Assembly: GCA_038209515.1 (NCBI GenBank)
Contig: JBBQXQ010000006.1
Span: forward strand, 1 to 60,054
DNA length: 60,054 bases
Reading direction: 5' to 3'
Origin: Gemmatimonadales bacterium
GTDB lineage: Bacteria > Gemmatimonadota > Gemmatimonadetes > Gemmatimonadales > GWC2-71-9
In this document: positions 146 to 50,619 of the stretch, piece after piece
How positions within the stretch are numbered: the stretch's first letter is position 1
How the letters are laid out: each line of letters opens with the position of its first letter
Notes under the pieces: model-generated
The model's database searches: none
What the model was told of the DNA's origin: nothing
Seen by the model: only the letters and a program-made list of their open reading frames with translations
Translations under genes and position numbers: made by a program

Positions 146-880
146 ATGCGAAACTACTGGGTACGAATCGCCTTCGGGGCATTGGCTATCTTCACGGTCG
201 GCATGATCGGCGTCACCCTCGCCCGGCAGGGGGTCGGCCGGGTGCGCGGTGTGGTCGAGGGATCCGGCCCGATCACATTGCCCATCCCGTTCATCCCGTT
301 CAAGCTCGACGGTCAGAAGCTTGGCACCCTGGACAAGGTTGTGCTTCTGCGCGAGGCGCCCAAGCGCATTTCGGCCGTCGAGCTCCAGATCAAGCTCCAG
401 GATTCAGTGATGGCGCGTGGGCTGGAAGGGTGTCGCCTCGCAGCCAACCTGGACGACCAGCACAATCACCGAGGCGTCAACGTCAAGGTCGGACCCCTCT
501 CGAGCGGCGTGTTCTCCTGCTTCCATGGCAATGATTCCAGCGCTCATCTGCAGGAATTTGGACGTGCCGTCTTCCAGCCCGGGGGCGTGAGCGTGCCGTT
601 GCTGCTGCCGCACGACATCGTGGACGACCTCAAGCGGGGGGACTTCGGTTCTGGGGAGGAAGACTCCATGGCATCTCTCGCGCAAGCCAGGCCCGATTCC
701 ATCGCCGAAGCGGCGGACGCCCGGGCGGACTCCATCACCACGGCGGTTGACGCACGGGCCGACTCCATCGCAGGCCGGAGCGAACGGTTGGTGGACTCGC
801 TGCGAACAGAGGGGGCGCGCCGGGCGGATTCCACTCGCCGGGCGGGGAGCCGCATGGTGGACTCCGCCCGTCGGCGCTAG
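146..880 (+). CDS. Hypothetical membrane-anchored protein; weak MCE/MlaD-like beta domain and C-terminal 11-residue repeats
   Basis: N-terminal hydrophobic helix (WVRIAFGALAIFTVGMIGVTL); FKLDGQKLGTLDKVVL resembles the MCE G-V-x-V-G-x-V motif; D-S recurs every 11 aa in the tail. Confidence 0.75.
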   Translation: MRNYWVRIAFGALAIFTVGMIGVTLARQGVGRVRGVVEGSGPITLPIPFIPFKLDGQKLGTLDKVVLLREAPKRISAVELQIKLQDSVMARGLEGCRLAANLDDQHNHRGVNVKVGPLSSGVFSCFHGNDSSAHLQEFGRAVFQPGGVSVPLLLPHDIVDDLKRGDFGSGEEDSMASLAQARPDSIAEAADARADSITTAVDARADSIAGRSERLVDSLRTEGARRADSTRRAGSRMVDSARRR

Positions 881-888
881 ACTAGGGC

Positions 889-1503
889 ATGCTTCTCGTT
901 CTCGACAACTACGACAGCTTCACCTATAACCTGGTGCAGTACGCGGGCGAGCTCGGGGCAGAGCCGGTCGTCTACCGCAACGATGCGTTGACTCCGGCCG
1001 AGGCCCTCGCGCTCCGGCCGGCAGCCATCATCATCTCCCCCGGTCCCTGCACGCCACGTGAGGCGGGCATCTCGATCCCCCTTGTCAGCGCAGCGGCGGG
1101 AATAATCCCGATCCTCGGCGTGTGCCTCGGGCATCAGGCGATCGGGGAGGCATTTGGTGGACGGGTCGTGCGGGCCGACCGCCTCATGCACGGGAAGACG
1201 ACCCAGGTCGTACACACCGGCCATCCCCTCTTTCAGGAAATCCCCTCGCCGGTGGAGGTCATGCGCTATCACTCCCTCGTGGTCTCGCCGAAGGATCTGC
1301 CCGCCGAGCTGGAGATCACCGCCTGGTCAGAAGACCGTCCCGCAGGGCAGGAAATTATGGCCCTGTGCCACCGGACGCTTCCCGTGTTCGGGGTGCAGTT
1401 CCACCCCGAATCCGTGGCCACCCGCCAGGGAAAACGGCTGCTTGCGAACTTCCTCTCTCTCGCCGCGATCGGCCTTCACGCGGATCAGCCTACGACTGTC
1501 TAA
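889..1503 (+). CDS. trpG: Anthranilate/aminodeoxychorismate synthase component II (class I glutamine amidotransferase, TrpG/PabA)
   Basis: [23 protein letters not shown] nucleophile, RYHSL, QFHPES catalytic triad motif. Confidence 0.93.
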
Positions 1504-1564
1504 CTCTTTGACGTACAATCTTCTAGCTACCTGCTCCTAACCCTCGGCTCGCGCGGCATAACTT

Positions 1565-1593
1565 TTGACTCGCGACCCGCTCTCTGTTAACTT
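1565..1593 (+). promoter_or_regulatory. Sigma70-type promoter giving a probably leaderless kdsB operon transcript
   Basis: TTGACT (1565-1570), 17 nt, TAACTT (1588-1593), 5 nt, ATG 1599; no SD. Confidence 0.65.
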
Positions 1594-1598
1594 CGGTG

Positions 1599-4008
<2,410 letters not shown>

Positions 4009-4009
<1 letters not shown>

Positions 4010-4809: not shown

Positions 4810-5366
4810 GCACCATCGACTCTGCCGCCGCCCGGCGCGTCCGGCTGCTCGGCCTCGACGTGGACGGCGTGCTGACCGACAATGGAGTCTTCATCGGGCC
4901 GGTGGGGGGAGCGCGTGTCGAGCTCAAGCGCTTCGACATTCAGGACGGGCTAGGAATGATTCTTCTCCGGACCGCGGGCCTTCCGGTCGTCTGGCTCAGC
5001 GGTCGAAGCTCCGAAGCGACTGCACTGCGGGCGGCCGAGCTCCGGGTGGCGGAGCTTCTTCAGGTGCCCGGGCCCCGCAAGCTGGCGGCGTTCGATGAGC
5101 TGCTGACGCGGCGCGGGATCGGTTGGGAGGAAGTGGCCTTCATGGGCGACGATCTCGCCGACCTGCCAGTCCTGCGGCGCGTGGGGTTGCCGATCGCCGT
5201 TGCCAATGCGGTAGCCGACGTAAAGGCAGTCGCGGCGTACGTGACCCGGGCGTCGGGTGGGCACGGCGCGGTCCGCGAGGTAATCGAGCTTCTTCTCAGG
5301 GCGCGGGGCGAGTGGGCGGACATTCTCGAGCGCTACTTTGCCGAGCAGGCTGCGGGGGTAGTGTGA
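4806..5366 (+). CDS. kdsC: KDO-8-phosphate phosphatase (HAD family)
   Basis: LDVDGVLTD, FDIQDGLG, FMGDDLAD, GGHGAVRE; start reset to ATG 4806 (ATGA overlap with kdsA stop). Confidence 0.93.
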   Translation: MSTIDSAAARRVRLLGLDVDGVLTDNGVFIGPVGGARVELKRFDIQDGLGMILLRTAGLPVVWLSGRSSEATALRAAELRVAELLQVPGPRKLAAFDELLTRRGIGWEEVAFMGDDLADLPVLRRVGLPIAVANAVADVKAVAAYVTRASGGHGAVREVIELLLRARGEWADILERYFAEQAAGVV

Positions 5367-5905
5367 GGCGATTCGTCTTGTCCGCCCTCTCCGCCCTCTC
5401 CGTTCTTGCATGCGAGGACACCGGGGTACGCCCCACCACGACAGTTCAGGCGTCCGACAGTGCGGATCAGGTGCTGGAAGGGTTCTCCCACTATGTCACT
5501 CATAACGGGATTCTGCGCAGCCGGGTGGAAGCGGACACCGCGTTCTTCTTTGACCCGACCCAAATGAACGAGCTGCACGGCCTGAAGGTTGTGTTCTTCG
5601 ATGTCAAAGGGGCGGAGAGCTCAACCCTGACGGCAAAGCGGGGCACCTACCGCTGGCAGGATGGATCGATGCAGGCCTCGGGCAACGTGGTCGTGGTATC
5701 ACCCGATGGCCGCCGGCTCGCCACGGACGTGCTCAAGTACGACAACGCGACGAACACCATCCTGACCGACCGACACTTTACCTTCGACCGGGGCGAGGAG
5801 CACCTCGAGGGCAATAGCTTCCGCTCCGATCCGGACTTCAAGAATGTCGTGACCGATCGTCCGCGGGGCGTGACAGGCAACGGCATGTTGCTGCCGGGAC
5901 AATGA
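5363..5905 (+). CDS. lptC: LPS export periplasmic protein LptC, probable lipoprotein
   Basis: GTGA overlap with kdsC stop; signal MRRFVLSALSALSVLA-C; beta-jellyroll pattern (LTAKRGTY, ASGNVVVVS, LATDVLKY); position between kdsC and lptA/lptB. Confidence 0.85.
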   Translation: MRRFVLSALSALSVLACEDTGVRPTTTVQASDSADQVLEGFSHYVTHNGILRSRVEADTAFFFDPTQMNELHGLKVVFFDVKGAESSTLTAKRGTYRWQDGSMQASGNVVVVSPDGRRLATDVLKYDNATNTILTDRHFTFDRGEEHLEGNSFRSDPDFKNVVTDRPRGVTGNGMLLPGQ

Positions 5906-7242
5906 GAGGGCAGGGCAGCGGGGCGGCCCTCGCGATTTTTGCCTGGTTCCTCCCGAGCCCGCTAGCCGCCCAGAGCGACCGCTGTGTCTTTCAGATCAAC
6001 AACGTCGATCGGCAGGGCAGCGTGGTCGAGACGCCCCAGGGCACCAACTATTTTGCCGGAGGCAATGTCCGCCTGAGCTGCCGGGGCTCGCAGATCACCA
6101 TGCAGAGCGACAGCGTGGCCGCGTACGGCGGGAACCTGGTCCGATTCATCGGCAATGTGAAATACCGCGACTCGACCCTCACCATGGATGCCGACTACGG
6201 CACCTACTACAAGGCCGGCGAAAAGTGGGAGGCACGGGGGGGCGTCAACACCCGGAACCTTAAGACCGGATCGACCCTCACTGGCCCGGCGCTGGACTAC
6301 TTCCGGGTCGTGAAGGGCGTGCGTGACACGCTGGAGATGTACGCGACGGGCCGGCCCCGCATTCAATACGCCAGCGCCGACTCGAGCGCCCGGGTGACGG
6401 AGCCCTACGTCATCGTCGCCGATCGGGTCCGCTTCAAGGGCAGCGACCGGCTGTGGGCGGGTGGGAAGGTCACGATCGATCGGAGCGACTTCGCCGCCCG
6501 GGGTGACTCCCTCCGGCTCGACACGGGGAAGGGAAGCGACGGCACTCTGACTGGGGGCAATCCGGTGATGCGTGGGCTGGGCCGGGACAGCTTCAGCGTT
6601 GCAGGCCGCAGGCTCGACCTCAAGCTCGACCGTCGGGAAGTAACCTACGTGACGGCCAAGGGCGGGGGACACGCCATCAGCAAGGAGTGGGATTTGGTGG
6701 CCGATACGATCGGCCTCGACCTCAACAATCGGAAACTGGAGCAAACGCTGGCATGGGGCGATTCAACCCGCCCCTATGCCAACTCCCCGTCGTACGCCAT
6801 GCGAGCCGATTCTCTGGCGCTGGACACGCCGGCGCAGCAGCTCAAGGAGGTACGCGGATTCGGAACCGCCTGGCTCGGTGGGACGATCGACGCGGCCAGC
6901 AAGCAGCGCGACTGGATGCGAGGCGATACCGTGGTCGCCCAGTTCGTGCAACGAGATTCCGCCGGCACCCGCCGCTCGGCCTTGAGCCGCATCGTGGCCC
7001 GGAAAGGCGCGCAGTCGTATCACATCGACCCGAGCACGAAGTATCCGGACCGGCCATCGATCAACTATGCCCGGGGCGACGTGATTGTCATGACGATGAA
7101 AACGGGCGTGCGCACCGGAGTGGACCGGGTCGACATCCGAGGACAAGTCGACGGAATCCAGCTCGAGGCGTCGGACGCGAAGGCGGTGGATTCGACCAAG
7201 GCTCCCCCCGACTCGCTCTCGCGGCCACGAGGTACCCGGTGA
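5902..7242 (+). CDS. Long OstA/LptA-like beta-jellyroll periplasmic protein (446 aa)
   Basis: Signal peptide ending LAA-Q; repeated GNVxL/GNVKY/GKVTI and (A/S/G)DS turns typical of OstA folds; occupies the lptA slot between lptC and lptB. Confidence 0.75.
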   Translation: MRGQGSGAALAIFAWFLPSPLAAQSDRCVFQINNVDRQGSVVETPQGTNYFAGGNVRLSCRGSQITMQSDSVAAYGGNLVRFIGNVKYRDSTLTMDADYGTYYKAGEKWEARGGVNTRNLKTGSTLTGPALDYFRVVKGVRDTLEMYATGRPRIQYASADSSARVTEPYVIVADRVRFKGSDRLWAGGKVTIDRSDFAARGDSLRLDTGKGSDGTLTGGNPVMRGLGRDSFSVAGRRLDLKLDRREVTYVTAKGGGHAISKEWDLVADTIGLDLNNRKLEQTLAWGDSTRPYANSPSYAMRADSLALDTPAQQLKEVRGFGTAWLGGTIDAASKQRDWMRGDTVVAQFVQRDSAGTRRSALSRIVARKGAQSYHIDPSTKYPDRPSINYARGDVIVMTMKTGVRTGVDRVDIRGQVDGIQLEASDAKAVDSTKAPPDSLSRPRGTR

Positions 7243-8402: not shown

Positions 8403-9919
8403 GGACTGGTCTCTCCCAGCATACCAGCCTCCGGCAGGAGCTTCGGGTCAATCCGCGGCTGTACCAGGCCATGGACATGCTTTACATGCCCATGATGGAC
8501 CTGCAGCAGCACCTCAAGCAGGAGCTGCTGGCCAACCCGTTCCTCGAGCTGCTCGAGCCGGAAGAAGAGACGGCAGAGCCGCTCACGGCCGAGCAGGAGA
8601 AGCAGCAGGAGAAGCAGAAGGAGAAGCAGGACGAGGTCGACTGGGAGGAGATCCTGCTCAACGGCTTCGAGGTGGGAGGCACCCGGGAGCAGTACGAGCA
8701 ACTCGAGTACAACGAGCCGGTCACCGTCGAGACCCGGAATCTGATCGATCACCTCCGGGAGCAGCTCCAGATGCTGACCCTCACTCCCCGGCAGCTGCTG
8801 CTCGCCGAAGAGTTTCTGGGCAATATCAACGAGGAGGGCTACCTCGCCGCCTCGCTCGAGGAGATCCTCGGCTCGGTGAATCAGCTCATGGCGGGGCATG
8901 TTCAAGGGGACGGAGAAGAGGGAGAAGACGGAGAGGTTGACGACTTCGACGCCTCGGCACCTACTGTCACGGGGACCTCTCCGTCCTCTCCGCCCTTTTA
9001 CACCATACAAGACGGCGAGGAGATGCTCACCGTCATCCAGCGTCTGGATCCCTCCGGCATCGGTGCGCGGGACCTCCGGGAATGCTTGCTCATCCAGCTG
9101 GTCGAGCTGGCCGATACGGCCTCGCTCACCTACCGGTTGGTGTCGGAGGCCTTCCCCGATCTCATCGCCCATCGCTGGAACGACCTGGCCAAGCGCTTCG
9201 GGGTCGAGCCGGTGGCGGTGCAGGCCGCGGCCGACCAGCTCTCCCGGCTCGATCCCAAGCCCGGTCTCCGCTATTCCGAGCAGACCGACGGCTACATCAT
9301 CCCTGACCTGATCGTGGAAAAGATCGGCGTGCGTTACCACGTCTTTCTGAACGACACCGGGATGCCTCGGCTACGCCTGAGCCGCTCGTATCAGGAGATT
9401 GCGCGGGACAAGAAGAAGATGACGCCGGAGAACCGCGAGTTCATTGCCTCCAAGATGAACAGCGCGAACTGGATGATTCAGGCGATCGAGCAGCGGCGGC
9501 AGACCATGCTGAAGGTGATGAACTTCATCGTCGACCGGCAGCGTGACTTCTTCGAGAAGGGCATCGAGTACCTCAAGCCACTCACCCTTCGCGAAGTGGC
9601 CGAAGTGATCAACATGCACGAGTCCACCGTCAGCCGGGTGACCAACGAGAAATACGTCCAGACCCCGCGCGGGGTGCTCCCGCTCAAGTTCTTCTTCTCC
9701 AGCGCGCTCTCGACTTCATCCGGCGAGGACGCAAGCGCCCGCTCCATCCGGGCCAAGCTGGAGAAGATGGTCGGCGAGGAGAACAGCGCGAAGCCGCTCA
9801 CCGACCAGCAGATCGTCCACCTCTTCCAGGAGCAAGGGATCCAGATCGCCCGCCGCACGGTCGCCAAGTACCGCGATCAGCTCGGCATCCTTCCGGCCCG
9901 AATGCGGAAACGGGTATGA
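8399..9919 (+). CDS. rpoN: RNA polymerase sigma-54 factor
   Basis: Gln/Leu-rich region I, NPFLE, GIGARDLRECL, HESTVSRVT, RpoN box ARRTVAKYR. Confidence 0.98.
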   Translation: MRTGLSQHTSLRQELRVNPRLYQAMDMLYMPMMDLQQHLKQELLANPFLELLEPEEETAEPLTAEQEKQQEKQKEKQDEVDWEEILLNGFEVGGTREQYEQLEYNEPVTVETRNLIDHLREQLQMLTLTPRQLLLAEEFLGNINEEGYLAASLEEILGSVNQLMAGHVQGDGEEGEDGEVDDFDASAPTVTGTSPSSPPFYTIQDGEEMLTVIQRLDPSGIGARDLRECLLIQLVELADTASLTYRLVSEAFPDLIAHRWNDLAKRFGVEPVAVQAAADQLSRLDPKPGLRYSEQTDGYIIPDLIVEKIGVRYHVFLNDTGMPRLRLSRSYQEIARDKKKMTPENREFIASKMNSANWMIQAIEQRRQTMLKVMNFIVDRQRDFFEKGIEYLKPLTLREVAEVINMHESTVSRVTNEKYVQTPRGVLPLKFFFSSALSTSSGEDASARSIRAKLEKMVGEENSAKPLTDQQIVHLFQEQGIQIARRTVAKYRDQLGILPARMRKRV

Positions 9920-10872
9920 CCGTGGCTCCGGTCGAGACGCTGGATGTGAGCGTACTCGTCCCGGCCAAGGACGAGGCGGAAAATCTCCCGGAGTTCCTCC
10001 AGCGTTGCGCGCAGGCGCTCGGCCCTGCCGGATTTTCCTTCGAAGTGATCGTCGTCAATGATGGCTCGCGGGACGGCACCGATCGGGTGCTCCGGGAGCT
10101 GGGGCGGCAGTATCCCTTCCTGGCGGTCGTCACCCACCGCCGCCAGCGCGGGATCGCCGATTCGCTGCGGTCTGCGGGCGACGTAGCTCGTGGGGATGTC
10201 TTCGTCTTTTACCCTGCCGACCTCCAGTACCTGCCGGAGGATATTCCCGGCCTGGTCGCCCCTATCCTGCAGGGTCGGGCCGACATCGTCACCGGCACCA
10301 AACAGGGCAAGTATGAGAAGGCCTTCGTCTCGAGTGTCTACAACGGCCTGTCACGCTGGTTGTTCGGCGTGCGGGTGACGGACCTGAATTCGGTCAAGGC
10401 CTACCGCCGTGAGGTCATGCTCGGCGTCCCGCTGCGTCCCGACTGGCATCGCTACATGGTGGTGATCGCGGCCGCGGACGGGTATCGCCTTACCTCCCTA
10501 CCCGTTCCTCTCTATCCCCGCCGGGCCGGTACCTCGAAGTTCAACTGGAAACGCATACCGATCGGACTGTTTGACCTGATCTCGGTCTGGTTCCAGCTTC
10601 GGTTCGGTCGCAAGCCAATGCTTTTCTTCGGCGTCGGTGGCGCCATTCTCTTCGTCATCGGTTTCCTCGCCGGCATTGCCGCTCTGGTGCTGCGTTTTGG
10701 CTATGGCATCGGCCTCCGCCCATTGTTGAATCTGGTCGAGATGATGGTGATCAGCGGAATTGTCCTGTTCGGATTCGGCTTTCTGGGCGAGATCATCGCC
10801 GGGATGCGGGAGGAGACCCGCGAGATCGCCCGAGATCTGGCCCGGCTCGAGAAGCCCGACGTCAGGGATTGA
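9916..10872 (+). CDS. GT2 glycosyltransferase with two C-terminal TM helices (ArnC/GtrB-like polyprenyl-phosphate glycosyltransferase)
   Basis: VLVPAKDEAENL, VVNDGSRDGT, ADLQY, RRAGTSK, C-terminal hydrophobic pair ending GFLGEII. Confidence 0.88.
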   Translation: MTVAPVETLDVSVLVPAKDEAENLPEFLQRCAQALGPAGFSFEVIVVNDGSRDGTDRVLRELGRQYPFLAVVTHRRQRGIADSLRSAGDVARGDVFVFYPADLQYLPEDIPGLVAPILQGRADIVTGTKQGKYEKAFVSSVYNGLSRWLFGVRVTDLNSVKAYRREVMLGVPLRPDWHRYMVVIAAADGYRLTSLPVPLYPRRAGTSKFNWKRIPIGLFDLISVWFQLRFGRKPMLFFGVGGAILFVIGFLAGIAALVLRFGYGIGLRPLLNLVEMMVISGIVLFGFGFLGEIIAGMREETREIARDLARLEKPDVRD

Positions 10873-10875
10873 TCG

Positions 10876-12018
10876 GTGAGGGTCGTCTTCCTGACCCATA
10901 ACTATCCCCGTTGGCCAGGTGATCTTTCGGGATCCTTTCTCGGGACGCTGGCGTCCGCCCTGGTCCGCCGGGGTGTCGACGTACGCGTCGTGGCGCCGAG
11001 TGACTCGGGGCAGGGGGGCGCGACAGTCGTGGACGGCGTGCCGGTTCGCCGGGTTCGCTACGCGTCAGCCGACTCCGAGATCCTCGCCTATCGCGGCACC
11101 ATGCTGGCCGCCTTGCGCCGGCCTGGCGGGTGGGCGGCCCTGGTGGGCCTCTGGCGGGCGCTCCGCCGTGCGGCTCGCGAGGAACTCGAGGCCGGTGCCG
11201 ATCTGATTCACGCTCACTGGTGGGTGCCTGCCGGGCTCGCCCTTCCACCGGGCGCACCGAGCGTGCTCACGGTACACGGCACCGACGCAGCGCTGCTCCG
11301 GCGCTCGCGCATCGCCCGGCGATTGGCCCGCCCCGTCTTCCGCCGCGCGCAGGTGGTTACTGCTGTTTCCCGCGAGCTCGCCGTGTGGGTGCAGAACGGG
11401 ACCGGACGCCACGTTGCCCCCTCCCACATCCAGCCGATGCCGATCAAGAGCAGCAACTTCCCCTGGAGCCGGGGCGGTGGAGGGGCCGTGGTGATCGCCC
11501 GGCTTACTCCCCAGAAGCGCGTACGCCTCGCCATCGATGCGGTGGCTACCCTCGTCTCCTGCGGCCATGACCTCCCGCTCACTATTGTGGGGGACGGCCC
11601 CGAGCGGTCCGTCCTCGAACAGCACGTTGCCAAACTCGGTCTCTCCGAGTTCGTGCGCTTTGCCGGAAACGTCGACAGTGCAGCGGTCCCCGACTATCTC
11701 GCTCGTGCCGATATCATGATCTTTCCCTCTCGCGAAGAAGGATTCGGATTGGCCGCGGCGGAGGCTCTGATGGCCGGGGTACCGGTCGTCGCGTGCTGGG
11801 ACGGTGGGGGCGTCCTCGACATCGTGCCGGAAACGGGCGCAGGGCGACTGACGCTTCCTTCGGCGCCCGCCATGAGCGACGCAATCCTGAGCATCCTGCA
11901 GGATCCGGATCGGCGTGAAATGGCCCGTCTGGTCGGCGAGTCCTGGCGGGCCCGGCTCGCGCCGGATCACGTAGCAGAAGTCTGTCACGGCTGGTACCGC
12001 GAGGCCTTGAGTGCGTAG
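10876..12018 (+). CDS. GT4 (GT-B fold) glycosyltransferase
   Basis: IHAHWW, TVHGTD, ARLTPQK, IVGDGPER, PSREEGFGLAAAEAL (EX7E). Confidence 0.9.
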   Translation: MRVVFLTHNYPRWPGDLSGSFLGTLASALVRRGVDVRVVAPSDSGQGGATVVDGVPVRRVRYASADSEILAYRGTMLAALRRPGGWAALVGLWRALRRAAREELEAGADLIHAHWWVPAGLALPPGAPSVLTVHGTDAALLRRSRIARRLARPVFRRAQVVTAVSRELAVWVQNGTGRHVAPSHIQPMPIKSSNFPWSRGGGGAVVIARLTPQKRVRLAIDAVATLVSCGHDLPLTIVGDGPERSVLEQHVAKLGLSEFVRFAGNVDSAAVPDYLARADIMIFPSREEGFGLAAAEALMAGVPVVACWDGGGVLDIVPETGAGRLTLPSAPAMSDAILSILQDPDRREMARLVGESWRARLAPDHVAEVCHGWYREALSA

Positions 12019-12937
12019 CGGCTGGCTCCGAGCGGCCCAGGCGGTGGTGGGTCTCGCGATCGTCGTGTTCGCGATTCGGACCCTCGTTCGAAACTGGGAT
12101 CAGCTGCGCTCACAACCGCTCGAGTGGCAGCTCCGGCCCGGATGGCTCGTGCTCAGCCTCGTGCTCACCTGGCTGATGTACGCGCTGCTGATTCTCGGCT
12201 GGCGCAGCATGCTGAGCGGCTGGGGCCAGCGGCTGGACGGATGGAGCGCTGCCCGGATTTGGATTCTGTCCAGTCTCGGCAAATACATCCCGGGAAAGGT
12301 GTGGGCCGTCGCGGGGATGGCCTTGTTGGCGCAACGGGCTGGCGTCGCACCGTGGGCAGCCACCGGCTCGGCCGTGGTGATGCAGGTGCTCGCAATCGGG
12401 ACGGGAGCGGCAGTCGCGGGACTGGCTGGGGCTCGCAACCTCGAGTCGGCTCAGCGAGGCGCCGGCGCCGGTCTCGTGCTGCTGGTCGCCGGCGCCATCA
12501 TTTCTGTGGGGCTGCTGCTTTGGCCACCTTTCCTGCGTCGTCTGCTGCGACTGGCGGCACCCCAAGCCGCGGGCGAGCGCCAGCCTACGGGTAGAGGCAT
12601 CGTGGTTGGGATCGCTACGAATATTGTTGCGTGGCTGGGCTATGGCCTCGCCTTGTGGCTCCTCGGTCGCGGGCTGCTGCCCAGCTCGGGTCTGGGCCTC
12701 CGCTTGGCAATCGCAGTATTTACGGCCTCGTACCTGGCTGGATTTCTCGCCCTGTTTGCGCCAGGCGGTATCGGCGTACGGGAAGGGCTTTTCATCCTCA
12801 TGCTGCAGAAACCGCTCGGTGTTGGCGCGGCCACCTCGCTGGCAGTAGCCTCGCGACTGTTGCTGACGGTGGCCGAGCTTGGTGCGGCCGTTCCATTTCT
12901 CGTCTTTCGCCGGAGGCAGGTGCGTGTCCCATCCTGA
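12011..12937 (+). CDS. Lysylphosphatidylglycerol-synthase TM-domain / flippase-like membrane protein
   Basis: Multiple TM helices; LGKYIPGKVW and APGGIGVREG motifs of the LPG_synthase_TM (AglD2/YbhN-like) family. Confidence 0.8.
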   Translation: MRSGWLRAAQAVVGLAIVVFAIRTLVRNWDQLRSQPLEWQLRPGWLVLSLVLTWLMYALLILGWRSMLSGWGQRLDGWSAARIWILSSLGKYIPGKVWAVAGMALLAQRAGVAPWAATGSAVVMQVLAIGTGAAVAGLAGARNLESAQRGAGAGLVLLVAGAIISVGLLLWPPFLRRLLRLAAPQAAGERQPTGRGIVVGIATNIVAWLGYGLALWLLGRGLLPSSGLGLRLAIAVFTASYLAGFLALFAPGGIGVREGLFILMLQKPLGVGAATSLAVASRLLLTVAELGAAVPFLVFRRRQVRVPS

Positions 12938-15299
12938 GTCTCCATCCGCCTTAGACCAGATGCCCCGGTGGTGGCCATTCGTCGTCATGGGCGCCCTGAC
13001 GCTGCTCGTGTTCCGCAACTATCTCGTGAGCGGACCGGGTTCGATGCTTCTGGGGCAGGATACCATCGCGGCCGGCATCATGTTTCGCTCCTTCTTTGTC
13101 GAGCACTTCAAGGCCCTTGGCCGGCTGCCACTGTGGAATCCTTATCTCTTCGGCGGTGTGCCCACGATCGAAGCCGGGAGCGGCGATATCCTATACCCCA
13201 CCTCGGCCCTGCACCTGCTCTTGCCCATGCCGAGCGCGCTTGCCTGGAAGCTCATCCTTCACGTCTACCTTGCCGGCGTGTTCATGTATCTGGCGGCCCG
13301 GGCCTTCGGGGTGAGCCGGTGGGTGGCCCTGTTTGCCGGCTTAGCGTACCTCCTGTCCGCCAACCTCGTAAGCCTTGTCTGGGGCGGACAGGACGGCAAG
13401 ATGTACGTCACCGCCCTGTTTCCGGCAGCGTTGTGGCTTCTGGTGACCGCACTCGACCGGCGATCATGGCTCCGGTTCCTCTGGCTCGGCGCGGTGGCCG
13501 GCCTCATGGTCGTGGCCCACCCGCAGCTCGCCTACTACGCCTATGTCGCCCTCTTGGCGTATGCGCTCGGCAGCTTATTCACCCGCCGTCGCAAAGGGGG
13601 AGCACTCCTCGCCACTGGGCTCGCAGGCGGCATGCTCGCCGGGCTCACCGCGATCGGGGTGGCAGCCATTACGCTGTTTCCCATGTACCGGTACTTGCGG
13701 GAAGATTCACCCCGGGCCGGGCCCGGCCGTGGATTTGAGTACTCCGCCAGCTGGTCGCTCCATGCCGAGGAGGCGCTTTCGCTGTTCATTCCTGACTTCA
13801 GCGGCACCGACGCGCAGTCGGAGACGTACTGGGGTAAGAACCCCTTCAAGCACAACTCTGAATACGGTGGGGCGTTGGTGTTTGTGCTGGGCATCGCAGC
13901 CCTGGCGGGTCTCAAAGGCGATCGTCGGCGCTGGGGGCTGGGGGCGTTGGCCGCGATCGCGCTCCTGTACGCGCTCGGCGCTGGCACCCCGGTATTCCGG
14001 CTGTTGTACTCGTTCGTGCCGGGTCTCAAGAATTTTCGGGCTCCGAGTCTCGCGACCTTCGTAGCCATCGCGGCTCTCACCCTTTTGGCCGCGCTGCTGT
14101 TGGACCGCGTGCTGTCCGGAGCAGATTTGCGCGCCCGCCGTGCGCTGTCGACTGCTCTCGTAGCTGGCGGCGTCGCGGCCCTCTTGATCGCCGTCCTGGC
14201 ATTGGGAGGGGGACCGGGGCTGTATGCCAGCTGGACTTCTGTCTTCGGCGCCGCCGAGGGAGGCCAGCGAGCGCAAGCCTTCGCAGCCAACCTCTCGCGG
14301 ATCGTAGGGGGTGCCCTCAGCGTTGCGATCATCTGCGCGCTGGCCTGGGGTGCGGTACTCCTGTGGAATCGGGGTAAGCTTCGAGCACTGCATGTTGTGA
14401 TGATCCTGACGAGCTTGACGGCCATCGACCTGCTTCGAGTGGATAACCGCTACATTCAGGTCGTTCGGTACGACGATTTCTTCCCACCGGATCAGGGTAT
14501 CGAGGCATTACGCGCGCGGCTGGTTCCCGGCGAGCGGGTGCTCACTGTCGGCGGAGTGTATCCCGAGGGGTTTCTGGCGACGTATGGGGTTCCCGAAGTG
14601 TTCGGCTACCATGGTAATCAGCTTCGGTGGTACAACGCGCTCACTCGCTACGACGTGCGCCAGGGGGCCCGCACCGCGGCTGACCAGGAGCAATACTGGC
14701 TTAGCTTTCTCAACAGTGCGGCGCTCCGGGCACTTGCCGCGAGGTACGTCCTCTTGCCGGGCCAGGTGGAGCTCCCCGGTCTCAAACTCCTGGGCGCCGA
14801 TCAACGGGTTGCGGTCTACCTTAACGAAAGCGCCATGCCCGGCGCGGCGGTGGTGCCAGAGGTGCAGGTCGAACCGGACTCCGCCCGCCAGATTGCGCTC
14901 CTCTGGTCGCCCACCTTCGATCCGGCAAAAACCACTCTGCTGGAAGAGGCTGTGCCGTCGATCGGGCATGGGGGAGGGACCGGGACTGCGGTTATTGAAG
15001 GGAACGGGGATGACACCCTGGCCGTGCGAGCTCGCACCACCGGACCCGCACTGCTGACCATAAGTCGTACGTATCATGGCTCGTGGCAGGCGGAGATCGA
15101 CGGCGCTCCCGTGCCCGTCCTCCGGGCTAACTTTGCCTTGATGGCGGTGCCGTTGACCAGCAGCGGCGAGCACCGGGTCGTGCTGCGCTACCGACCCAGG
15201 ATCGTTCAGTCCACCGCGATTGTTACCGCCGCCACCTGGACCATCCTGCTCCTGGTGACTGCCGTGACGGCGCTCTTGAGCCTTCGCCGACGTGGCTGA
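12924..15299 (+). CDS. YfhO-family GT-C polytopic membrane glycosyltransferase
   Basis: First-loop D and PLWNPYLFGGVP motif, HPQLAYY, FRAPS; more than 10 TM helices; C-terminal YHGSWQAEIDG..VLRANFALMAV..GEHRVVLRY YfhO signature; start GTG 12924 or ATG 12960. Confidence 0.82.
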   Translation: MSHPESPSALDQMPRWWPFVVMGALTLLVFRNYLVSGPGSMLLGQDTIAAGIMFRSFFVEHFKALGRLPLWNPYLFGGVPTIEAGSGDILYPTSALHLLLPMPSALAWKLILHVYLAGVFMYLAARAFGVSRWVALFAGLAYLLSANLVSLVWGGQDGKMYVTALFPAALWLLVTALDRRSWLRFLWLGAVAGLMVVAHPQLAYYAYVALLAYALGSLFTRRRKGGALLATGLAGGMLAGLTAIGVAAITLFPMYRYLREDSPRAGPGRGFEYSASWSLHAEEALSLFIPDFSGTDAQSETYWGKNPFKHNSEYGGALVFVLGIAALAGLKGDRRRWGLGALAAIALLYALGAGTPVFRLLYSFVPGLKNFRAPSLATFVAIAALTLLAALLLDRVLSGADLRARRALSTALVAGGVAALLIAVLALGGGPGLYASWTSVFGAAEGGQRAQAFAANLSRIVGGALSVAIICALAWGAVLLWNRGKLRALHVVMILTSLTAIDLLRVDNRYIQVVRYDDFFPPDQGIEALRARLVPGERVLTVGGVYPEGFLATYGVPEVFGYHGNQLRWYNALTRYDVRQGARTAADQEQYWLSFLNSAALRALAARYVLLPGQVELPGLKLLGADQRVAVYLNESAMPGAAVVPEVQVEPDSARQIALLWSPTFDPAKTTLLEEAVPSIGHGGGTGTAVIEGNGDDTLAVRARTTGPALLTISRTYHGSWQAEIDGAPVPVLRANFALMAVPLTSSGEHRVVLRYRPRIVQSTAIVTAATWTILLLVTAVTALLSLRRRG

Positions 15300-16014
15300 T
15301 CGTCTCCTCGTGGTCGTGCCGACATACAACGAGCGGGTCAATCTGCCGCTGGTGGTGCCTGCTATTCTCCAGCAGGACCCCCGGATCGATGTCCTGGTCG
15401 TAGACGACAACTCGCCTGACGGGACCGGCCAACTGGCCGATGAGCTGGCCGCCTCCACGCCACGGGTGCACGTCCTGCACCGGCCCACCAAGTCGGGCCT
15501 GGGGAAGGCCTACCTGGCCGGCTTCCAGTGGGCGCTGGCGAACCGGTATGATCTGATCTTCGAGATGGACGCGGACTTCTCCCACGACCCGAAGTTCCTG
15601 GGCGACTTCGTCCGCGCTGCGGTCAACGCCGATCTGGTGATTGGGTCGCGCTACCGGGCCGGGGTGGTGAACGTCATCAACTGGCCGATCTCCCGGCTCC
15701 TGCTTTCCATCGGTGCCAACCAATACGCCCGCTGGATCACCGGTCTTCCGCTGGCTGATTCGACCGGCGGCTTCAAGTGTTTTCGGCGTGAGGTGCTCGA
15801 GGCCATCGATTTCGAGAAGGTACGGTCCAATGGTTACGCCTTTCAGATCGAAATGAGCTTTCGGGCCTGGAAGAAGGGGTTCCGGTTGGTGGAGGTTCCC
15901 ATCGTATTCACCGATCGGGTCGAGGGACAGAGCAAAATGAACAAGCGCATCGTTCGGGAGGCGATCTGGATGGTCTGGTGGCTCCGGCTTCAGTCCCTGA
16001 TTGGGCGCCTGTGA
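15292..16014 (+). CDS. Polyprenol-phosphate mannose synthase (DPM1/Ppm1-like GT2)
   Basis: VVPTYNER, VVDDNSPDGTG, GLGKAY, EMDADFSHDP, IGSRY, DSTGGFK, GYAFQIEM, FTDRVEGQSKM. Confidence 0.88.
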   Translation: MADRLLVVVPTYNERVNLPLVVPAILQQDPRIDVLVVDDNSPDGTGQLADELAASTPRVHVLHRPTKSGLGKAYLAGFQWALANRYDLIFEMDADFSHDPKFLGDFVRAAVNADLVIGSRYRAGVVNVINWPISRLLLSIGANQYARWITGLPLADSTGGFKCFRREVLEAIDFEKVRSNGYAFQIEMSFRAWKKGFRLVEVPIVFTDRVEGQSKMNKRIVREAIWMVWWLRLQSLIGRL

Positions 16015-30199: not shown

Positions 30200-31642
30200 T
30201 CAACTCTTTGCCTGAAGCGTCTTGTAGCGCCACGCCGAAATGCCGGTACCCTGCGCCTTGGCCTCGATCGGATGGGTTTCACCGGTCTTCAGCGCGGGCA
30301 CCTGAACCTCCTGATTGCCCACCACTGTTCCCTTGCTGTCCAGGAACTCAAAGACCACCGTGATGGGCTTCGCTGTGATGGGCTTCCCCCGCGAGTTCTG
30401 CGCGTCACGCCCGGTCGCGGTGGCCTTGACGCTCGCACCGTCGGCTGCCGGTGCGAACTCTTTCACCGCGATGCTGACCGGCATTGCGATCACCTGCATG
30501 GCCGTCTTGTTCGCCGACGCTTCCTTCTTGGCCATCCGCTGACCGGTCGCGAGCATACGGAGAACGTCGTCGTTCAGCGGCTCGATCGCAACCAGGCGCG
30601 TGGCCGTTTGAGCCAGTTGCGGCCCCTTCTTCAGACCAAGGTACGAATTGGCCAGACCGTACAGCGCATCCCGGTTGTATGGCTCAGCCACGACAATCTG
30701 CTCGAACGCCGTGGCCGCCGAGTCATACTTCTTGGCATTGTAGAGCGCGATCGCGGCGTTCATCGCGGCACTCTGGCCGGTCCCGGCAGGGGGTGCCGCC
30801 GCAGCGGGTCCGCCGACACCCGCCTGGGCTTCGAGGGCCTTGGCCTTATCGAGCTTACCGGTCGCGCGGTAGATCCCTGCGAGGGCTCGCTTGGCTTCTA
30901 CGTCATTGGGGGCCCATCCGAGATACCGCTCCAGGGCCGCGGCTGCCTCCTCATTGCGATTCTGCCGCTGGAGAACCGCGGCGAGATTGAACGTGGCCTG
31001 GTTCCGATCCTCCGCCATGTTGGCCGTAGTGGCGATATCGGCTGCCTTCTGAAGATATACGATGGCGCTATCGTCCATCTTGTTGTTGGCCAGGATCACT
31101 GCGGCTGCGGAGTACGCCTGCGGCTTGTCGCGATAGATAATGTTTGCCTGGCGAAAAAGCGCGAGCGCGGAATCGCTCTTCTGCCCCTTGGCAAAGCTGA
31201 TCCCGGCATTGACCAGTGGCACCCATCCGTTGTAGCGCTGCGCGCTGATATCCTGCTTGCACCCCGGCGACAGGGCCTCGGCTTTGGTGAAGGCCGTGTC
31301 AGCGCCCACCAAGTCGCCCTGCTGGAGGTGCACCCGCCCGAGGTAGTACCACGCGGCCGGATTCTTCTCCTGGCCGTTCTGCTGGATGGCTTCGAGGAGT
31401 ACCTTCTGCCCTGAGGCGAGTGCCCGGGTCTTGTTGGCCGGCACCTCGGTCTCGACGCCGGTCTTCAGATACGTGGCTCCACTGCTGACCTTGAAGTGTC
31501 CCGCCTTCAAGCCGCAGGTCGGGGGCAGATATTTCGACGGCAGGCCTTGTACTACCCGATCGTTGACCGCGGGCTGCTGCGCTGCGGCTGGAGAGGCACC
31601 CACCCCCAAGAGACCGGCAGCCAACACGATTCTGGTATTCAC
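30200..31642 (-). CDS. Secreted TPR-repeat protein with C-terminal Ig-like (FxLYD-like) domain
   Basis: Signal peptide (AAA-Q), multiple TPRs (AWYYLGRVHL, ALYGLAN), terminal VVFEFLDSKGTVVG..LKTGE; SD AAGGAGG. Confidence 0.82.
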   Translation of the reverse strand: MNTRIVLAAGLLGVGASPAAAQQPAVNDRVVQGLPSKYLPPTCGLKAGHFKVSSGATYLKTGVETEVPANKTRALASGQKVLLEAIQQNGQEKNPAAWYYLGRVHLQQGDLVGADTAFTKAEALSPGCKQDISAQRYNGWVPLVNAGISFAKGQKSDSALALFRQANIIYRDKPQAYSAAAVILANNKMDDSAIVYLQKAADIATTANMAEDRNQATFNLAAVLQRQNRNEEAAAALERYLGWAPNDVEAKRALAGIYRATGKLDKAKALEAQAGVGGPAAAAPPAGTGQSAAMNAAIALYNAKKYDSAATAFEQIVVAEPYNRDALYGLANSYLGLKKGPQLAQTATRLVAIEPLNDDVLRMLATGQRMAKKEASANKTAMQVIAMPVSIAVKEFAPAADGASVKATATGRDAQNSRGKPITAKPITVVFEFLDSKGTVVGNQEVQVPALKTGETHPIEAKAQGTGISAWRYKTLQAKS

Positions 31643-36672: not shown

Positions 36673-36701
36673 AGTCTACGACGGATGGAGGGCGCCTTCA
36701 A
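36673..36701 (-). promoter_or_regulatory. Sigma70 promoter giving a leaderless transcript for the small protein and murJ
   Basis: Minus strand TTGAAG, 17 nt, TAGACT, 6 nt, ATG 36666. Confidence 0.6.
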
Positions 36702-38929: not shown

Positions 38930-39017
38930 AGCGGTAAGCGGTGAGCGGGACCAGCACTGCAAAAAGGGGCGTCGTCGCGCACACCAATCCACCCGCTTAC
39001 CGCTCACCGCTCACCGC
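38930..39017. repeat. Inverted repeat built from tandem 7-mers (GCGGTRA / TYACCGC)
   Basis: AGCGGTAAGCGGTGAGCGGG (38930-38949) versus CCCGCTTACCGCTCACCGCTCACCGC (38992-39017); 18 of 20 Watson-Crick pairs. Confidence 0.8.
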
Positions 39018-39474: not shown

Positions 39475-39497
39475 CCGCGCCTACTGCCCCCCTGCCT

Positions 39498-40802: not shown

Positions 40803-40830
40803 AGAAGTTCCGGTCCGCTCCGTGTGTTGG

Positions 40831-47660: not shown

Positions 47661-47664
47661 GCGA

Positions 47665-48204
47665 CTAGCTGCCCGCTTTAAGCTGCTGGATGATGCGCTG
47701 AGTCAGATCCAGCGACTTATCGGCGGTGACGATCCCGTTGTTCGGCGCGCTCACGTCGAAAATCACGGCGTAATTGCCCGCCGCCCGCACACCCTCGATG
47801 ACACTGTTTACCTTCGTCTGGATCGGATCGAGAAGCTCCCGTTCCCGGGTGGCAGCCTTCGTCTGCAGCTCCTGCGTCCGCTGTTCCAGTTTCTGCTGCT
47901 GCGCCTGGAGGTCCTTCCGTTTGGCGGCCCGTTGGCTGGGACTCAGCATGACCGACTGCTGATCGAAGTCCGACGCCGCCGAGTCAAGGGTTGCCTGAAG
48001 CTTCTGCACCTCGACCCGGTAGCCCTCGAGTTCCTTCGTGAAGGTCGACTCGGCCTTGGTGTATCCGGGCGTCTGTTTGAGGATCGCTTGGGTGTTGACG
48101 TACGCGATCTTGGCACTTCCACTCTGCTGGGCGGCGAGCGGCCCGGCTCCCACCAATGAGAATGTGGCCAATCCCAGCCAGACTCCGACGACGGCAAGCT
48201 TCAT
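47665..48204 (-). CDS. skp: Periplasmic chaperone Skp/OmpH
   Basis: Signal peptide, KIAYVN, long coiled coil, VIFD...DLTQRII; between bamA and lpxD. Confidence 0.92.
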   Translation of the reverse strand: MKLAVVGVWLGLATFSLVGAGPLAAQQSGSAKIAYVNTQAILKQTPGYTKAESTFTKELEGYRVEVQKLQATLDSAASDFDQQSVMLSPSQRAAKRKDLQAQQQKLEQRTQELQTKAATRERELLDPIQTKVNSVIEGVRAAGNYAVIFDVSAPNNGIVTADKSLDLTQRIIQQLKAGS

Positions 48205-48234
48205 GCTTCACTCCCGATAAAAGGTGCGTGCTGA

Positions 48235-50619
48235 CTAAAAGAAATTGCCCAGCTTGAAATGGAGCTGCCAGCCGGGTTTGGGCCGGCCGTTGAGATCCAC
48301 CTTATCGAATCCGTAGCCCAGATCGACGCCGATGGGGCCCAGCGGCGAGATGACGGCCGCGCCGAAGCCGGCACCACGGAACAATCGTGTCGGGTCCCAC
48401 TGCCGGGCACTGCGGTACACGTTCCCGGCGTCGAAGAAGGCGTCGACGTAGAGCGATTGGCTGATCCGGGCACCGGCCTCGACCGTGAACGTCGCATAGG
48501 ACTTGCCGAACGATTCGGAGCTCGCCGCATTGTTACCACCGGCGGTCGGATCGAATCCGTTCGGCGTGATCGAGAACTCATCGTAACCCCGCAGCGGAAT
48601 GCCGTACTGGACGCCCCCGAGGGCGTAGAGATCCTGGTAGAACGGTCCCGCATCACCGAAGACGAACCCCGACTTGGCGGTAAGGCCAAGCACGAACTGC
48701 ACGCCGGCGCCGAGCTGCCCCGCACCACCCATAGTCCCGAGCGGCGCGTACCAACGCCCTTCGAGATCCACCTTCCGATAGTTTCCCGTGCCGCCCAGAA
48801 TCCCACCGTTGAGCTCGCCGCTGACGTTGGTCATGACGCCGCCGGTGGCGAAGGGCAAGCCGACCCGGGTGTCCCGAACCAGGCTGAGCCCGAAGGATGA
48901 CTTGGTACATGCGCTGCACCGAAAACGCGCCTGAATGTCGGCCGAACCCTCAGAATAGCGGATGCGCTGGAACGAGTAAGAGGCGAAGAACCGGGTATAG
49001 CGCGATCCCAGGAAGGGAAATCCGAGCTGTAGGCTGCCGCCGGTCTGCTTCCGCCGACCGAGATCGCCGATGTTGTACCGGGCTCGGGAGTCGAACAGGG
49101 AGACGGTCCCGGAGATCCGGCTCTCCCGGATGGCGGGGTCGGTGTAACTCAGGGTGAAGTCATTGATGTTCTTCCCGAACTGCCATTGGAGCTTGCCCCG
49201 CTTTCCCCGGCCAAAAAGATTGGGCTCTTCCAGGCCGAGGAAGCCACCGACTCCAGTTCCCTGGCCCAGGGAAGCACCGAAGTTGATGTTACCGGTGCGG
49301 CGCTCCTCGACCCGGAACACGATGTCCACGTCGACACCATTCGCCGCTGGTTTCACGTCTGGCGGCGGAAGCGGCTGCTGGAAGAACCCCAGGTTGGCCA
49401 CGTTCTGGTAGGAGCGGATCAGCCGATCACGGCTGAACAGATCACCGGGAAGCATCACGATCGCCTCACGGATGACGCGCTCGTGCGTGACTTCATTACC
49501 GACGATCTCGACCTTGTTGATCGTGGCCGGCGACCCCTCGCGGACGTTCCAGCGCAAATCCACCACCGGCATCCCGCCGGGGCCGGTGCGGCGCACTTCT
49601 TCAGGTTGCACCTGAGAGTAGATGTAGCCGTTGTTGGCGTAGAGGTTCTGGACCTTGTCCGTCGCCTCGTTCCACTCCGACCGGCTGAATGGCTGGCTTC
49701 GATCCAGAGGTGCGCCAGTAGGACCGATCGGCCCGAACGGGTAGAAGGCCCGGAGCTCCTCGGTCGAAAACCGCCGGTTCCCCTGGATGTCGAATGTCCC
49801 GACCCGGTAGATGGGGCCTTCGTCGACGGTCAACCGGAGGACCGCCTTACCGCCGGCTGAGTCCGATACCAGGGAATCGTGGGTGACCTGGAAATCAACG
49901 TACCCCTGATCGGCATACCAGTGCGGGAGCCGCTCGCGGACGTCCTGCTCCACCGCCCGCTCATCGTACTCGCCCTTCTGGAACCACCAGAAGCCTTCCG
50001 GCCGGGTGGACATGTGCTTGACCACGGCCTTGTCCGAGAAATGCTTGTTCCCGTCCACAATGACCTGGCTGATCGCGACCCGCTCGCCTTCCTCGACGTC
50101 GAAGACGACGCGGGCCTTGCTGGGGCTCGGCGCGAGCTGGATCACCTTCACCCTGGAGGCGTAGTACCCCTGGTGCTTGTAGAGCGAGTCGATGCCGGCG
50201 CGGCCTTGTTCGACAGCGTTCCGATCGAGTGGACGGCCTTCGGTGAGATGCACCCGGCCCTTGACCTCGCCTTCGGAGAGCCGGTTCACCCCGCGCACCG
50301 TCCATTTTTCCAGCAGCGGACGTTCCTTGACTCGAATGACGAGCACCAGGCGACCCCCGGCGTTTCGCTGTTCGACCACGACGTCGTCGAACTGGCCGGT
50401 GCGGAAGAGTGCCGTGATGGCGCGCTGGATGTCCCGGTAATTGATCGGCTGGTGAACGATGATGCCGGAGGTGCCGATGATCTGTGAGGGAGTGACGCGT
50501 GTCTGACCTTCGACCGCGATGCTATCGACTGCGGGCGGGGCTGTGTCTTGAGCCGCGAGGGCCCTCTGTCCCCCCAGTAAGAGCGAACCGCCTAGAAGGG
50601 TCGGAAGGAAACGGTGCAT
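48235..50619 (-). CDS. bamA: Outer membrane protein assembly factor BamA
   Basis: Signal peptide, POTRA repeats, NLFGRG, LRGY, SPLGPI..DLGY, terminal F. Confidence 0.96.
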   Translation of the reverse strand: MHRFLPTLLGGSLLLGGQRALAAQDTAPPAVDSIAVEGQTRVTPSQIIGTSGIIVHQPINYRDIQRAITALFRTGQFDDVVVEQRNAGGRLVLVIRVKERPLLEKWTVRGVNRLSEGEVKGRVHLTEGRPLDRNAVEQGRAGIDSLYKHQGYYASRVKVIQLAPSPSKARVVFDVEEGERVAISQVIVDGNKHFSDKAVVKHMSTRPEGFWWFQKGEYDERAVEQDVRERLPHWYADQGYVDFQVTHDSLVSDSAGGKAVLRLTVDEGPIYRVGTFDIQGNRRFSTEELRAFYPFGPIGPTGAPLDRSQPFSRSEWNEATDKVQNLYANNGYIYSQVQPEEVRRTGPGGMPVVDLRWNVREGSPATINKVEIVGNEVTHERVIREAIVMLPGDLFSRDRLIRSYQNVANLGFFQQPLPPPDVKPAANGVDVDIVFRVEERRTGNINFGASLGQGTGVGGFLGLEEPNLFGRGKRGKLQWQFGKNINDFTLSYTDPAIRESRISGTVSLFDSRARYNIGDLGRRKQTGGSLQLGFPFLGSRYTRFFASYSFQRIRYSEGSADIQARFRCSACTKSSFGLSLVRDTRVGLPFATGGVMTNVSGELNGGILGGTGNYRKVDLEGRWYAPLGTMGGAGQLGAGVQFVLGLTAKSGFVFGDAGPFYQDLYALGGVQYGIPLRGYDEFSITPNGFDPTAGGNNAASSESFGKSYATFTVEAGARISQSLYVDAFFDAGNVYRSARQWDPTRLFRGAGFGAAVISPLGPIGVDLGYGFDKVDLNGRPKPGWQLHFKLGNFF

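Follow-up and report, generated by a model that had tools for sequence, protein, structure and literature searches.

The window considered here is a stretch of 60,054 nucleotides from contig JBBQXQ010000006.1 of the Gemmatimonadales assembly GCA_038209515.1, and the subject is a short sequon that accumulates in the envelope proteins it encodes. The sequon, Asp-(Ser/Thr)-(Ala/Ile/Leu/Val/Met/Thr), written D-[ST]-[AILVMT] in the one-letter code, is the motif of general O-glycosylation in Bacteroidota. The proteins in which it was counted, both exported proteins and cytoplasmic controls, are the following.

146..880, + strand: ORF146, membrane-anchored periplasmic protein; 8 sequons in 244 amino acids (aa), against 0.9 expected
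2348..4009, + strand: PyrG, cytoplasmic control; 0 sequons
5312..5905, + strand: LptC-like lipoprotein with a PF06835 match and a lipobox start; 2 sequons
5902..7242, + strand: LptA-like exported protein; 11 sequons in 446 aa
22830..24152, - strand: Der GTPase, cytoplasmic control; 4 sequons
26615..28741, - strand: galactose-oxidase-like (AA5-type) exported protein with Big_1 domains; 2 sequons
30200..31642, - strand: exported tetratricopeptide repeat (TPR) protein; 4 sequons
47665..48204, - strand: Skp-like chaperone, a name that rests on its position beside BamA and LpxD; 1 sequon
48235..50619, - strand: BamA; 5 sequons
50678..53152, - strand: ClpC-like ATPase, cytoplasmic control, named from an earlier reading of the sequence; 0 sequons

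The initial annotation had counted the motif by hand in ten window proteins, and a regular-expression search on independent gene calls reproduced all ten counts exactly. Its two cytoplasmic controls, PyrG and ClpC, indeed contain no site, but they turned out to be atypical, lucky picks, as Der carries 4 sites, UvrC 3 and a biopterin hydroxylase 3. By hand sum, seven envelope proteins of the window contain 33 sites in 3048 aa (10.8 per 1000), versus 33 sites in 11,693 aa (2.8 per 1000) for the 36 window proteins classed as cytoplasmic, with BamA taken out. In a ranking of about 3050 proteins by Poisson p, ORF146 stands 11th and the LptA-like protein 17th. Neither Pfam nor NCBIfam gave a match to ORF146, and in the ESM Atlas it falls only in Gemmatimonadota clusters, apart from a weak MlaD-like lead at 0.77. 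The LptA-like protein, to which no Pfam or NCBIfam model was matched either, is 446 aa long versus 185 aa in E. coli, and the gene order KdsC-LptC-LptA-LptB-RpoN (window 1596-8402) is identical in the two bacteria.

The window belongs to an assembly (G000) of 3,420,223 bases in 228 contigs, with 65% G+C and a completeness of 95%. The source names attached to close homologues agree that this soil bacterium is a member of Gemmatimonadales. Genes were called with a self-trained codon-usage caller, which yielded 3116 to 3136 genes at 88% coding density, and start codons were chosen in part according to whether they gave a signal peptide. Simple home-made rules divided the proteins into four classes: signal-peptide proteins, lipoproteins, membrane proteins, and those with none of these features, termed cytoplasmic. 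The exported class comprises the signal-peptide proteins and lipoproteins, of which only the mature parts were used. BamA was missed by the signal-peptide rule and thus sits in the cytoplasmic class, where it works against the enrichment described below. After genes at contig edges had been dropped, 2994 genes were left for the proteome-wide test, in which the expectation was set by each protein's own composition through shuffling within the protein (200 shuffles for the exported class and 60 for the cytoplasmic class).

Across the genome, the sequon is about twice as frequent as expected in exported proteins and at chance in cytoplasmic ones. The 575 exported proteins contain 1101 sites versus 548.7 ± 22.6 after shuffling (z-score 24.4), and the highest count reached in any of the shuffles was 606. 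The 1675 cytoplasmic proteins contain 1158 sites versus 1154.5 ± 31.2 (z-score 0.1), while the 666 membrane proteins lie between these two classes, with 668 sites versus 468.4 ± 20.4 (z-score 9.8). The ratio of observed to expected sites is 2.11 for lipoproteins and 1.96 for signal-peptide proteins. The excess is broad, with at least one site in 375 of the 575 exported proteins (65%) and 58% of them above their own expectation; removal of the top 5% of proteins still leaves a ratio of 1.71 (839/491). Under a first-order Markov expectation, the exported class reaches 1.54 (1101/714) and the cytoplasmic class 1.15. The compartment-specific selection that the initial annotation had proposed from a handful of proteins is thus supported at the scale of the whole genome, and the enrichment survives correction for composition, whether by own-composition expectation, within-protein shuffles, the Markov model or the removal of the most loaded proteins.

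The enrichment is also specific to the motif. In exported proteins, the reversed motif occurs at 533 sites versus 548 expected (0.97), and two further control motifs stand lower still, E[ST]x at 0.83 and D[ST] with a residue outside the set in third place at 0.71. The motifs [ST]Dx, Dx[ST], D[AG]x and N[ST]x range from 0.77 to 1.12 in both exported classes, and D[NQ]x from 1.02 to 1.32. Serine is preferred over threonine, with a ratio of 2.59 for DS and 1.46 for DT in exported proteins. At the third position after D-S, the ratios are 3.12 for L, 2.80 for M, 2.75 for V, 2.50 for T, 2.29 for A, 2.00 for I and 1.60 for S; all remaining residues are at or below 1.09, and E, Q, N, Y, F and D are depleted. 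An unbiased scan of the 5079 tripeptides whose expected counts were high enough returned, for exported proteins, DSL (191 sites versus 61.3), DSV, DSA, ADS and DST as the most over-represented, and these same tripeptides are at chance in cytoplasmic proteins. The preferences for D rather than E, for S over T and for this set of third residues, including the weaker S, are those of the Bacteroidota motif; the text of a recent review reports the same third-residue set and the same preference for serine in Bacteroidota glycoproteomes (PMC12871550). An artefact of DNA words was considered as well and ruled out, as all six serine codons occur in the sites (TCG at 0.39, versus 0.28 elsewhere).

One-pass membrane proteins offer a comparison of both sides of the membrane within single polypeptides. 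The 16 Ser/Thr kinases used were those with a single membrane segment after a Hanks kinase motif, a definition independent of signal-peptide calls. The cytoplasmic parts of these kinases contain 5 sites versus 11.2 expected, and their outer parts 64 sites versus 18.2 (3.52), with 16 occurrences of the reversed motif.

Other genomes were analyzed under the same pipeline. In the exported proteins of six controls from outside the Fibrobacterota–Chlorobiota–Bacteroidota (FCB) group, the observed and expected counts are 54/55 in Archangium, 11/16 in Methylobacterium, 34/33 in a metagenome-assembled genome (MAG) of Chthonomonadaceae, 34/38 in a MAG of Acidobacteriaceae, 48/57 in Lentisphaera and 57/55 (1.04, over 400 kb) in E. 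coli. Pooled, they give 238/255, or 0.93, over 251 exported proteins. Among Gemmatimonadota, enrichment is present in a member of the same order (G083, 151/99) and in two members of another class (G022, 101/48; G026, 104/57). One of three Bacteroidota samples is likewise clearly enriched (105/55). The tripeptide DSL ranks 1st of 4457 in the three other enriched Gemmatimonadota pooled, 1st of 5485 in the three Bacteroidota pooled, and 2773rd of 4991 in five pooled controls. Proteobacterial orthologues of the window proteins are not enriched: in E. coli, LptA has 0 sites versus 0.5 expected, LptC 2 versus 0.9, BamA 4 versus 3.2 and Skp 0 versus 0.5, and fifteen annotated E. coli envelope proteins together have 26 versus 23.7. 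Equal enrichment in such orthologues, which the initial annotation had raised as an objection to its own proposal, was therefore not found.

Individual sites are conserved within the genus in one protein studied in depth, although the relatives used in such comparisons share descent and are not independent. The LptA-like protein was compared with 120 homologues at 78-95% identity: 10 of its 11 sites are valid sequons in at least 113 of them, and the Ser/Thr residues of the sequons are kept at 0.989 versus 0.730 for other Ser/Thr residues. Substitutions stay within the allowed class; at one site, for example, DSI occurs 57 times, DST 54, DTI 3, DSV 3 and DSA 2. In the cytoplasmic Der, compared across 119 homologues, sequon residues are kept at 0.891 versus 0.933 for other D and S/T, i.e., with no excess, and one Der site survives in just 15 of the 119. 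This comparison sets one protein against one. In seven other genomes, LptA-like orthologues carry 7 to 28 sites versus 1.2 to 3.5 expected.

The outer-membrane receptors behave differently from the rest of the exported proteome. In 24 TonB-dependent receptors from four other Gemmatimonadota genomes (G074, G077, G080 and G095; two other families), only 15 sites were found versus 55.7 expected (Poisson P ~1e-10), with 52 occurrences of the reversed motif. The six receptors of the window's genome are not enriched (10 sites versus 12.6), and the control receptors, a small set, give 11 versus 12.3 in five from E. coli K-12 and 3 versus 4.7 in three from Archangium. Plasmid sequences yielded for the most part a single truncated receptor fragment from enterobacterial plasmids and were set aside as a source of further controls. 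This suggests that the sequon is avoided in receptor barrels, where a modification would hurt, as expected if something reads the motif.

Candidate machinery is encoded in the window itself, in a cluster located downstream of LptC-LptA-LptB-RpoN and composed, in this order, of the following five genes.

9916..10872, + strand: glycosyltransferase family 2 (GT2) protein with C-terminal membrane helices, of ArnC/AglJ/PgfS type (polyprenyl-phosphate sugar synthase type); PF00535, 2 membrane segments
10876..12018, + strand: glycosyltransferase family 4 (GT4) protein; PF00534 and PF13439 matches
12011..12937, + strand: PF03706 (LPG_synthase_TM) membrane protein, possible flippase partner by inferred role; 5 membrane segments
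12960..15299, + strand: YfhO-like membrane glycosyltransferase of the C type (GT-C), 779 residues, candidate sequon-reading transferase; 3 sequons
15292..16014, + strand: short GT2 of AglJ/PpgS/dolichyl-phosphate-hexose transferase type; NCBIfam matches under cut-offs

The YfhO-like protein does contain the 3 sequons counted in the initial annotation, where it was listed as a substrate alone; among the proteins of the window, it is the best candidate for the transferase. The two GT2 genes of ArnC/AglJ/PgfS/PpgS-type similarity flank the YfhO-like gene, with NCBIfam scores below cut-offs; for the first of them, the matches are ArnC (7e-23), AglJ (9e-21) and PgfS (9e-13), all under their thresholds, and the second overlaps the YfhO-like gene by 8 bases. 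The YfhO-like protein matches PF09586 with 42.8 bits (cut-off 28.5), although over profile positions 775-835 of 835 only, and this partial match is common to three Bacteroidota open reading frames (ORFs). Its PMT_2 score is just under the cut-off, and a search with a profile of YfhO-like proteins against PDB sequences gave 0 matches at E up to 1. By hydropathy, the protein has 13 hydrophobic segments, with residues 493-747 as an outer domain of some 250 aa. All 21 aligned sequences, including the three from Bacteroidota, have an Asp at the position of D34, which lies in the first outer loop, and this residue is also kept in G077 and G083. The protein and a YfhO-like ORF of one Bacteroidota genome (G137) are reciprocal best matches (E 7e-14 and 6e-16). 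In a tree of 21 YfhO-like sequences, the three from Bacteroidota group with those of Calditrichaceae and Archangium.

The window's genome has a single YfhO-like gene, and each of the 121 Gemmatimonadota genomes sampled, a set that includes the unpublished G073 and G112, yielded a homologue. The cluster is located within a conserved KdsB-PyrG-KdsA-KdsC-LptC-LptA-LptB-RpoN block, and in G013-G019, G045, G074, G080, G083 and G095 the distance between it and the Lpt genes is 6 to 11 kb. In the three Bacteroidota genomes examined, the YfhO-like gene has a GT4 gene as a neighbour in two, one of which also has a Wzx-type flippase, and a sugar-nucleotide epimerase/dehydratase in the third. Elsewhere, the window's genome also encodes three PMT_2 proteins and two Wzy_C ORFs (C2, C65), and the latter could be O-antigen ligases.

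Within the genus, the YfhO-like protein has 78% identity to its counterparts in G096, G037 and the unpublished G073, and only 33-38% to those in G032, G048, G133 and G134; conserved neighbours such as PyrG reach 86-95% in other members of the same genus. To judge from these identities, this allele seems to have been swapped or to evolve fast, a behaviour typical of loci for glycan diversity. The GT4 of the cluster has BshA as its best NCBIfam match, at 90 bits (cut-off 274), and a BshC gene (36676-38796) lies 25 kb away; for these reasons, the GT4 may belong to the synthesis of a thiol, bacillithiol, rather than to a glycan pathway.

Taken together, the sequon shows an enrichment that is specific to compartment, motif and lineage, and in one protein its sites are conserved within the genus. 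It is probable, on this evidence, that this Gemmatimonadales bacterium possesses a general, sequon-directed modification of extracytoplasmic proteins similar to the general O-glycosylation of Bacteroidota; by analogy with that system, the modification would be a glycan. Proteins would be exported through the inner membrane before being modified, and a periplasm-facing membrane enzyme would then recognize the tripeptide and add a sugar to its Ser or Thr. Selection would in this manner have roughly doubled how densely the motif occurs, both in proteins that are exported or lipid-anchored and in those parts of membrane proteins that lie outside, and cytoplasmic proteins would have remained at chance because they never meet the enzyme.

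Which enzyme would perform this step is a more tentative matter. The YfhO-like GT-C of the window (12960-15299) is a possible transferase, put forward with limited confidence. Its sugar would come from the polyprenyl-phosphate-sugar synthases encoded nearby (9916-10872 and 15292-16014), with the PF03706 protein as the flippase, a scheme modelled on the streptococcal GtrB/PgtC2 and PgfS/PgfM1 pairs. Genetic work in streptococci, described in PMC12041528, shows that extracytoplasmic Ser/Thr residues are O-glycosylated by YfhO-family enzymes that pair with a GT-A synthase, and the preprint 10.64898/2026.07.27.740950 predicts YfhO in silico as the transferase of Bacteroidota. A wider and rather doubtful proposal joins the two phyla. 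According to it, O-glycosylation at D-S/T-hydrophobic sites would be common to Bacteroidota and Gemmatimonadota, through an FCB ancestor or an old transfer, with a YfhO-family GT-C as the transferase in a three-component system, which would bring sugar from its polyprenyl-phosphate carrier to the sequon in the periplasm; the sequon would be exposed to selection so strongly that some lineages enrich it proteome-wide and others purge it from outer-membrane barrels.

Several observations weigh against a general modification or against the YfhO-like enzyme as its agent. All of the support consists of sequence statistics, and the gene caller as well as the signal-peptide, lipobox and membrane rules are heuristics, as the missed BamA illustrates. 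The named genomes used for comparison were reached through a 16S pattern, and the regional samples cover 100 to 400 kb each. One member of the same class but of another order, G077, has no enrichment (31/40 in 280 kb, C1:1800001-2080000), and its good signal-peptide proteins have between 0 and 3 sites apiece. Of the three Bacteroidota that served as positive controls, two reach only 1.16 (98/85) and 1.07 (114/107), which fits the remark in the text of PMC12871550 that enrichment is not found in every species. When the positive-inside rule was used to orient 272 polytopic proteins, a crude and noisy assignment, the ratio was 1.60 in outer loops (118/73.6) and still 1.35 in inner ones (90/66.7), with the reversed motif at about 1.2. 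Positional conservation is lost at deep divergence: in best-hit pairs between families of the phylum, at 36-40% identity, 11 of 56 exported sequons were kept, and so were 10 of 45 reversed motifs. It follows that selection would act on the density of sites, or that sites turn over quickly, and over long times it may be density rather than position that is maintained. Turnover with preserved density favours a modification that works in bulk, for example in shielding, solubility or protection from proteases, over one with site-specific roles. As regards the enzyme, G077 has the GT2-YfhO-PF03706 trio intact, with 13 of 14 invariant residues kept, and YfhO-like genes also occur in the non-enriched Archangium, Methylobacterium and Chthonomonadaceae. 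The tree supports no claim of orthology between the Gemmatimonadales and Bacteroidota enzymes, as the joining support is only 0.30. Embedded as it is in the 3-deoxy-D-manno-octulosonate (Kdo)/Lpt/RpoN block, the cluster may instead decorate lipopolysaccharide.

This last thought leads to a rival explanation in which glycosylation is real and the transferase is another GT-C or a ligase-type enzyme, while the target of the YfhO cluster is lipopolysaccharide or some other glycolipid of the envelope. Such an arrangement is on the unlikely side: the PMT_2 and Wzy_C proteins of the genome supply candidates, and the conserved Kds/Lpt/RpoN surroundings of the cluster, the intact trio of the non-enriched G077 and the YfhO-like genes of other non-enriched genomes all agree with it. 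However, B. thetaiotaomicron, in the control panel, has no PMT_2 match but has YfhO and Wzy_C matches, and PglL-type ligases, as far as the text of PMC12871550 describes them, have no such sequon. The periplasmic selection could also serve a purpose other than glycosylation, with the motif acting as a site of acylation, of phosphorylation by an envelope kinase, or of recognition by a chaperone, a protease or a sorting system. Statistical evidence is silent on chemistry, and the turnover of sites at deep divergence fits any density-dependent property. Nevertheless, DSL heads the list of tripeptides in both phyla but in no control, and we know of no other envelope process with a D-S/T-[AILVMT] motif. 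A non-glycan purpose is improbable also in view of the match, at all three positions, to a glycosylation motif that was defined experimentally in Bacteroidota, as the review text reports (PMC12871550).

The two remaining explanations dispense with a modification altogether. The sequon might be a structural by-product of a few expanded exported families, such as OstA/LptA-like beta-jellyrolls and repeat proteins, in which Asp-Ser/Thr-hydrophobic turns recur. The LptA-like orthologues, with 7 to 28 sites versus 1.2 to 4.6, do raise this suspicion, particularly because the protein of G077 has 20 sites versus 4.6 expected despite the absence of general enrichment there, and D with a hydrophobic residue is perhaps part of the LptA-like fold. 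At the level of the proteome, however, this explanation is already largely refuted and thus very unlikely, since more than half of the exported proteins (58% of 575) exceed their expectation, the ratio without the top 5% is 1.71, E. coli LptA has 0 sites and LptC 2, the six controls stand at 0.93, and the outer domains of kinases, which have unrelated folds, reach 3.52. Least credible of all is an artefact of gene calling or classification in a genome with 65% G+C, for instance wrong-frame ORFs with starts resembling signal peptides. The predictors are indeed heuristic and signal peptides partly decided the choice of starts, but Archangium (68% G+C) and Methylobacterium (71%) are flat under the same pipeline, the effect is seen in bona fide proteins of the window, and the kinase test needs no signal-peptide call. 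Moreover, homologues in public protein sets have the same sites, and all six serine codons are used.

If a general sequon-directed glycosylation operates in Gemmatimonadales, its implications extend beyond the window. A second, distant phylum with the same signature would mean that the system arose earlier or was transferred long ago. Candidate enzymes could be found by intersecting the few GT-C families common to both phyla, and contrasts of the kind offered by G077 would help. The prediction is that a large share of the envelope proteome is glycosylated in Gemmatimonadota, an abundant soil phylum, which would bear on proteomics, envelope biology and survival of drying. As the phylum has cultured members, the prediction is open to direct mass spectrometry.

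Among known systems, the N-glycosylation of Campylobacter by PglB is similar in relying on a bacterial sequon, D/E-X-N-X-S/T, with an upstream acidic residue, read in the periplasm (PMC12871550, review text). It differs in being N-linked and in using an enzyme of the STT3 family (PF02516), to which the window's genome, 95% complete, gave 0 matches. The CsbB-GtcA-YfhO system of B. subtilis and Listeria likewise joins a YfhO GT-C to a synthase and to a small membrane protein or flippase, but its acceptor is lipoteichoic acid rather than protein, according to the portions available of PMC7389260 and PMC8035078; membership of the YfhO family therefore does not fix the acceptor.

The streptococcal pairs GtrB/PgtC2 and PgfS/PgfM1, as described in parts of PMC12041528 and PMC5856776, consist of a GT-A polyprenyl-phosphate-sugar synthase and a YfhO-family GT-C, the latter acting on extracytoplasmic Ser/Thr. 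Genes of both types are neighbours in the window too, and NCBIfam shows a weak resemblance to PgfS, PgfM1 and PgfM2. In contrast, the streptococcal enzymes act on disordered, Ser/Thr-rich tails without a defined sequon, and the similarity to the protein of the window covers only its C-terminal ~70 residues, far under the family cut-offs.

The closest counterpart is the general O-glycosylation of Bacteroidota, which the available parts of PMC12871550 and of the preprint 10.64898/2026.07.27.740950 describe as unique to that phylum, with a transferase still unidentified more than 15 years on. The text of the review names no phylum beyond Bacteroidota for this system, although its figure and supplements may show more, and literature searches on Gemmatimonadota found no paper describing protein glycosylation, in agreement with the initial annotation, which knew of none. 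The Gemmatimonadales case concerns another phylum and is known from sequence alone. The likeness nevertheless comprises the same motif at all three positions, the preference for serine, the confinement to non-cytoplasmic proteins and, in both phyla, a YfhO-like gene beside a GT4 gene. It also comprises the large share of proteins covered, as 65% of the exported proteins have at least one site here, versus 'about half' in the text of PMC12871550. The enrichment in Gemmatimonadales (2.0) is even stronger than in two of the three Bacteroidota sampled. A glycosylation system supposed to be exclusive to Bacteroidota thus probably reaches into a second phylum.

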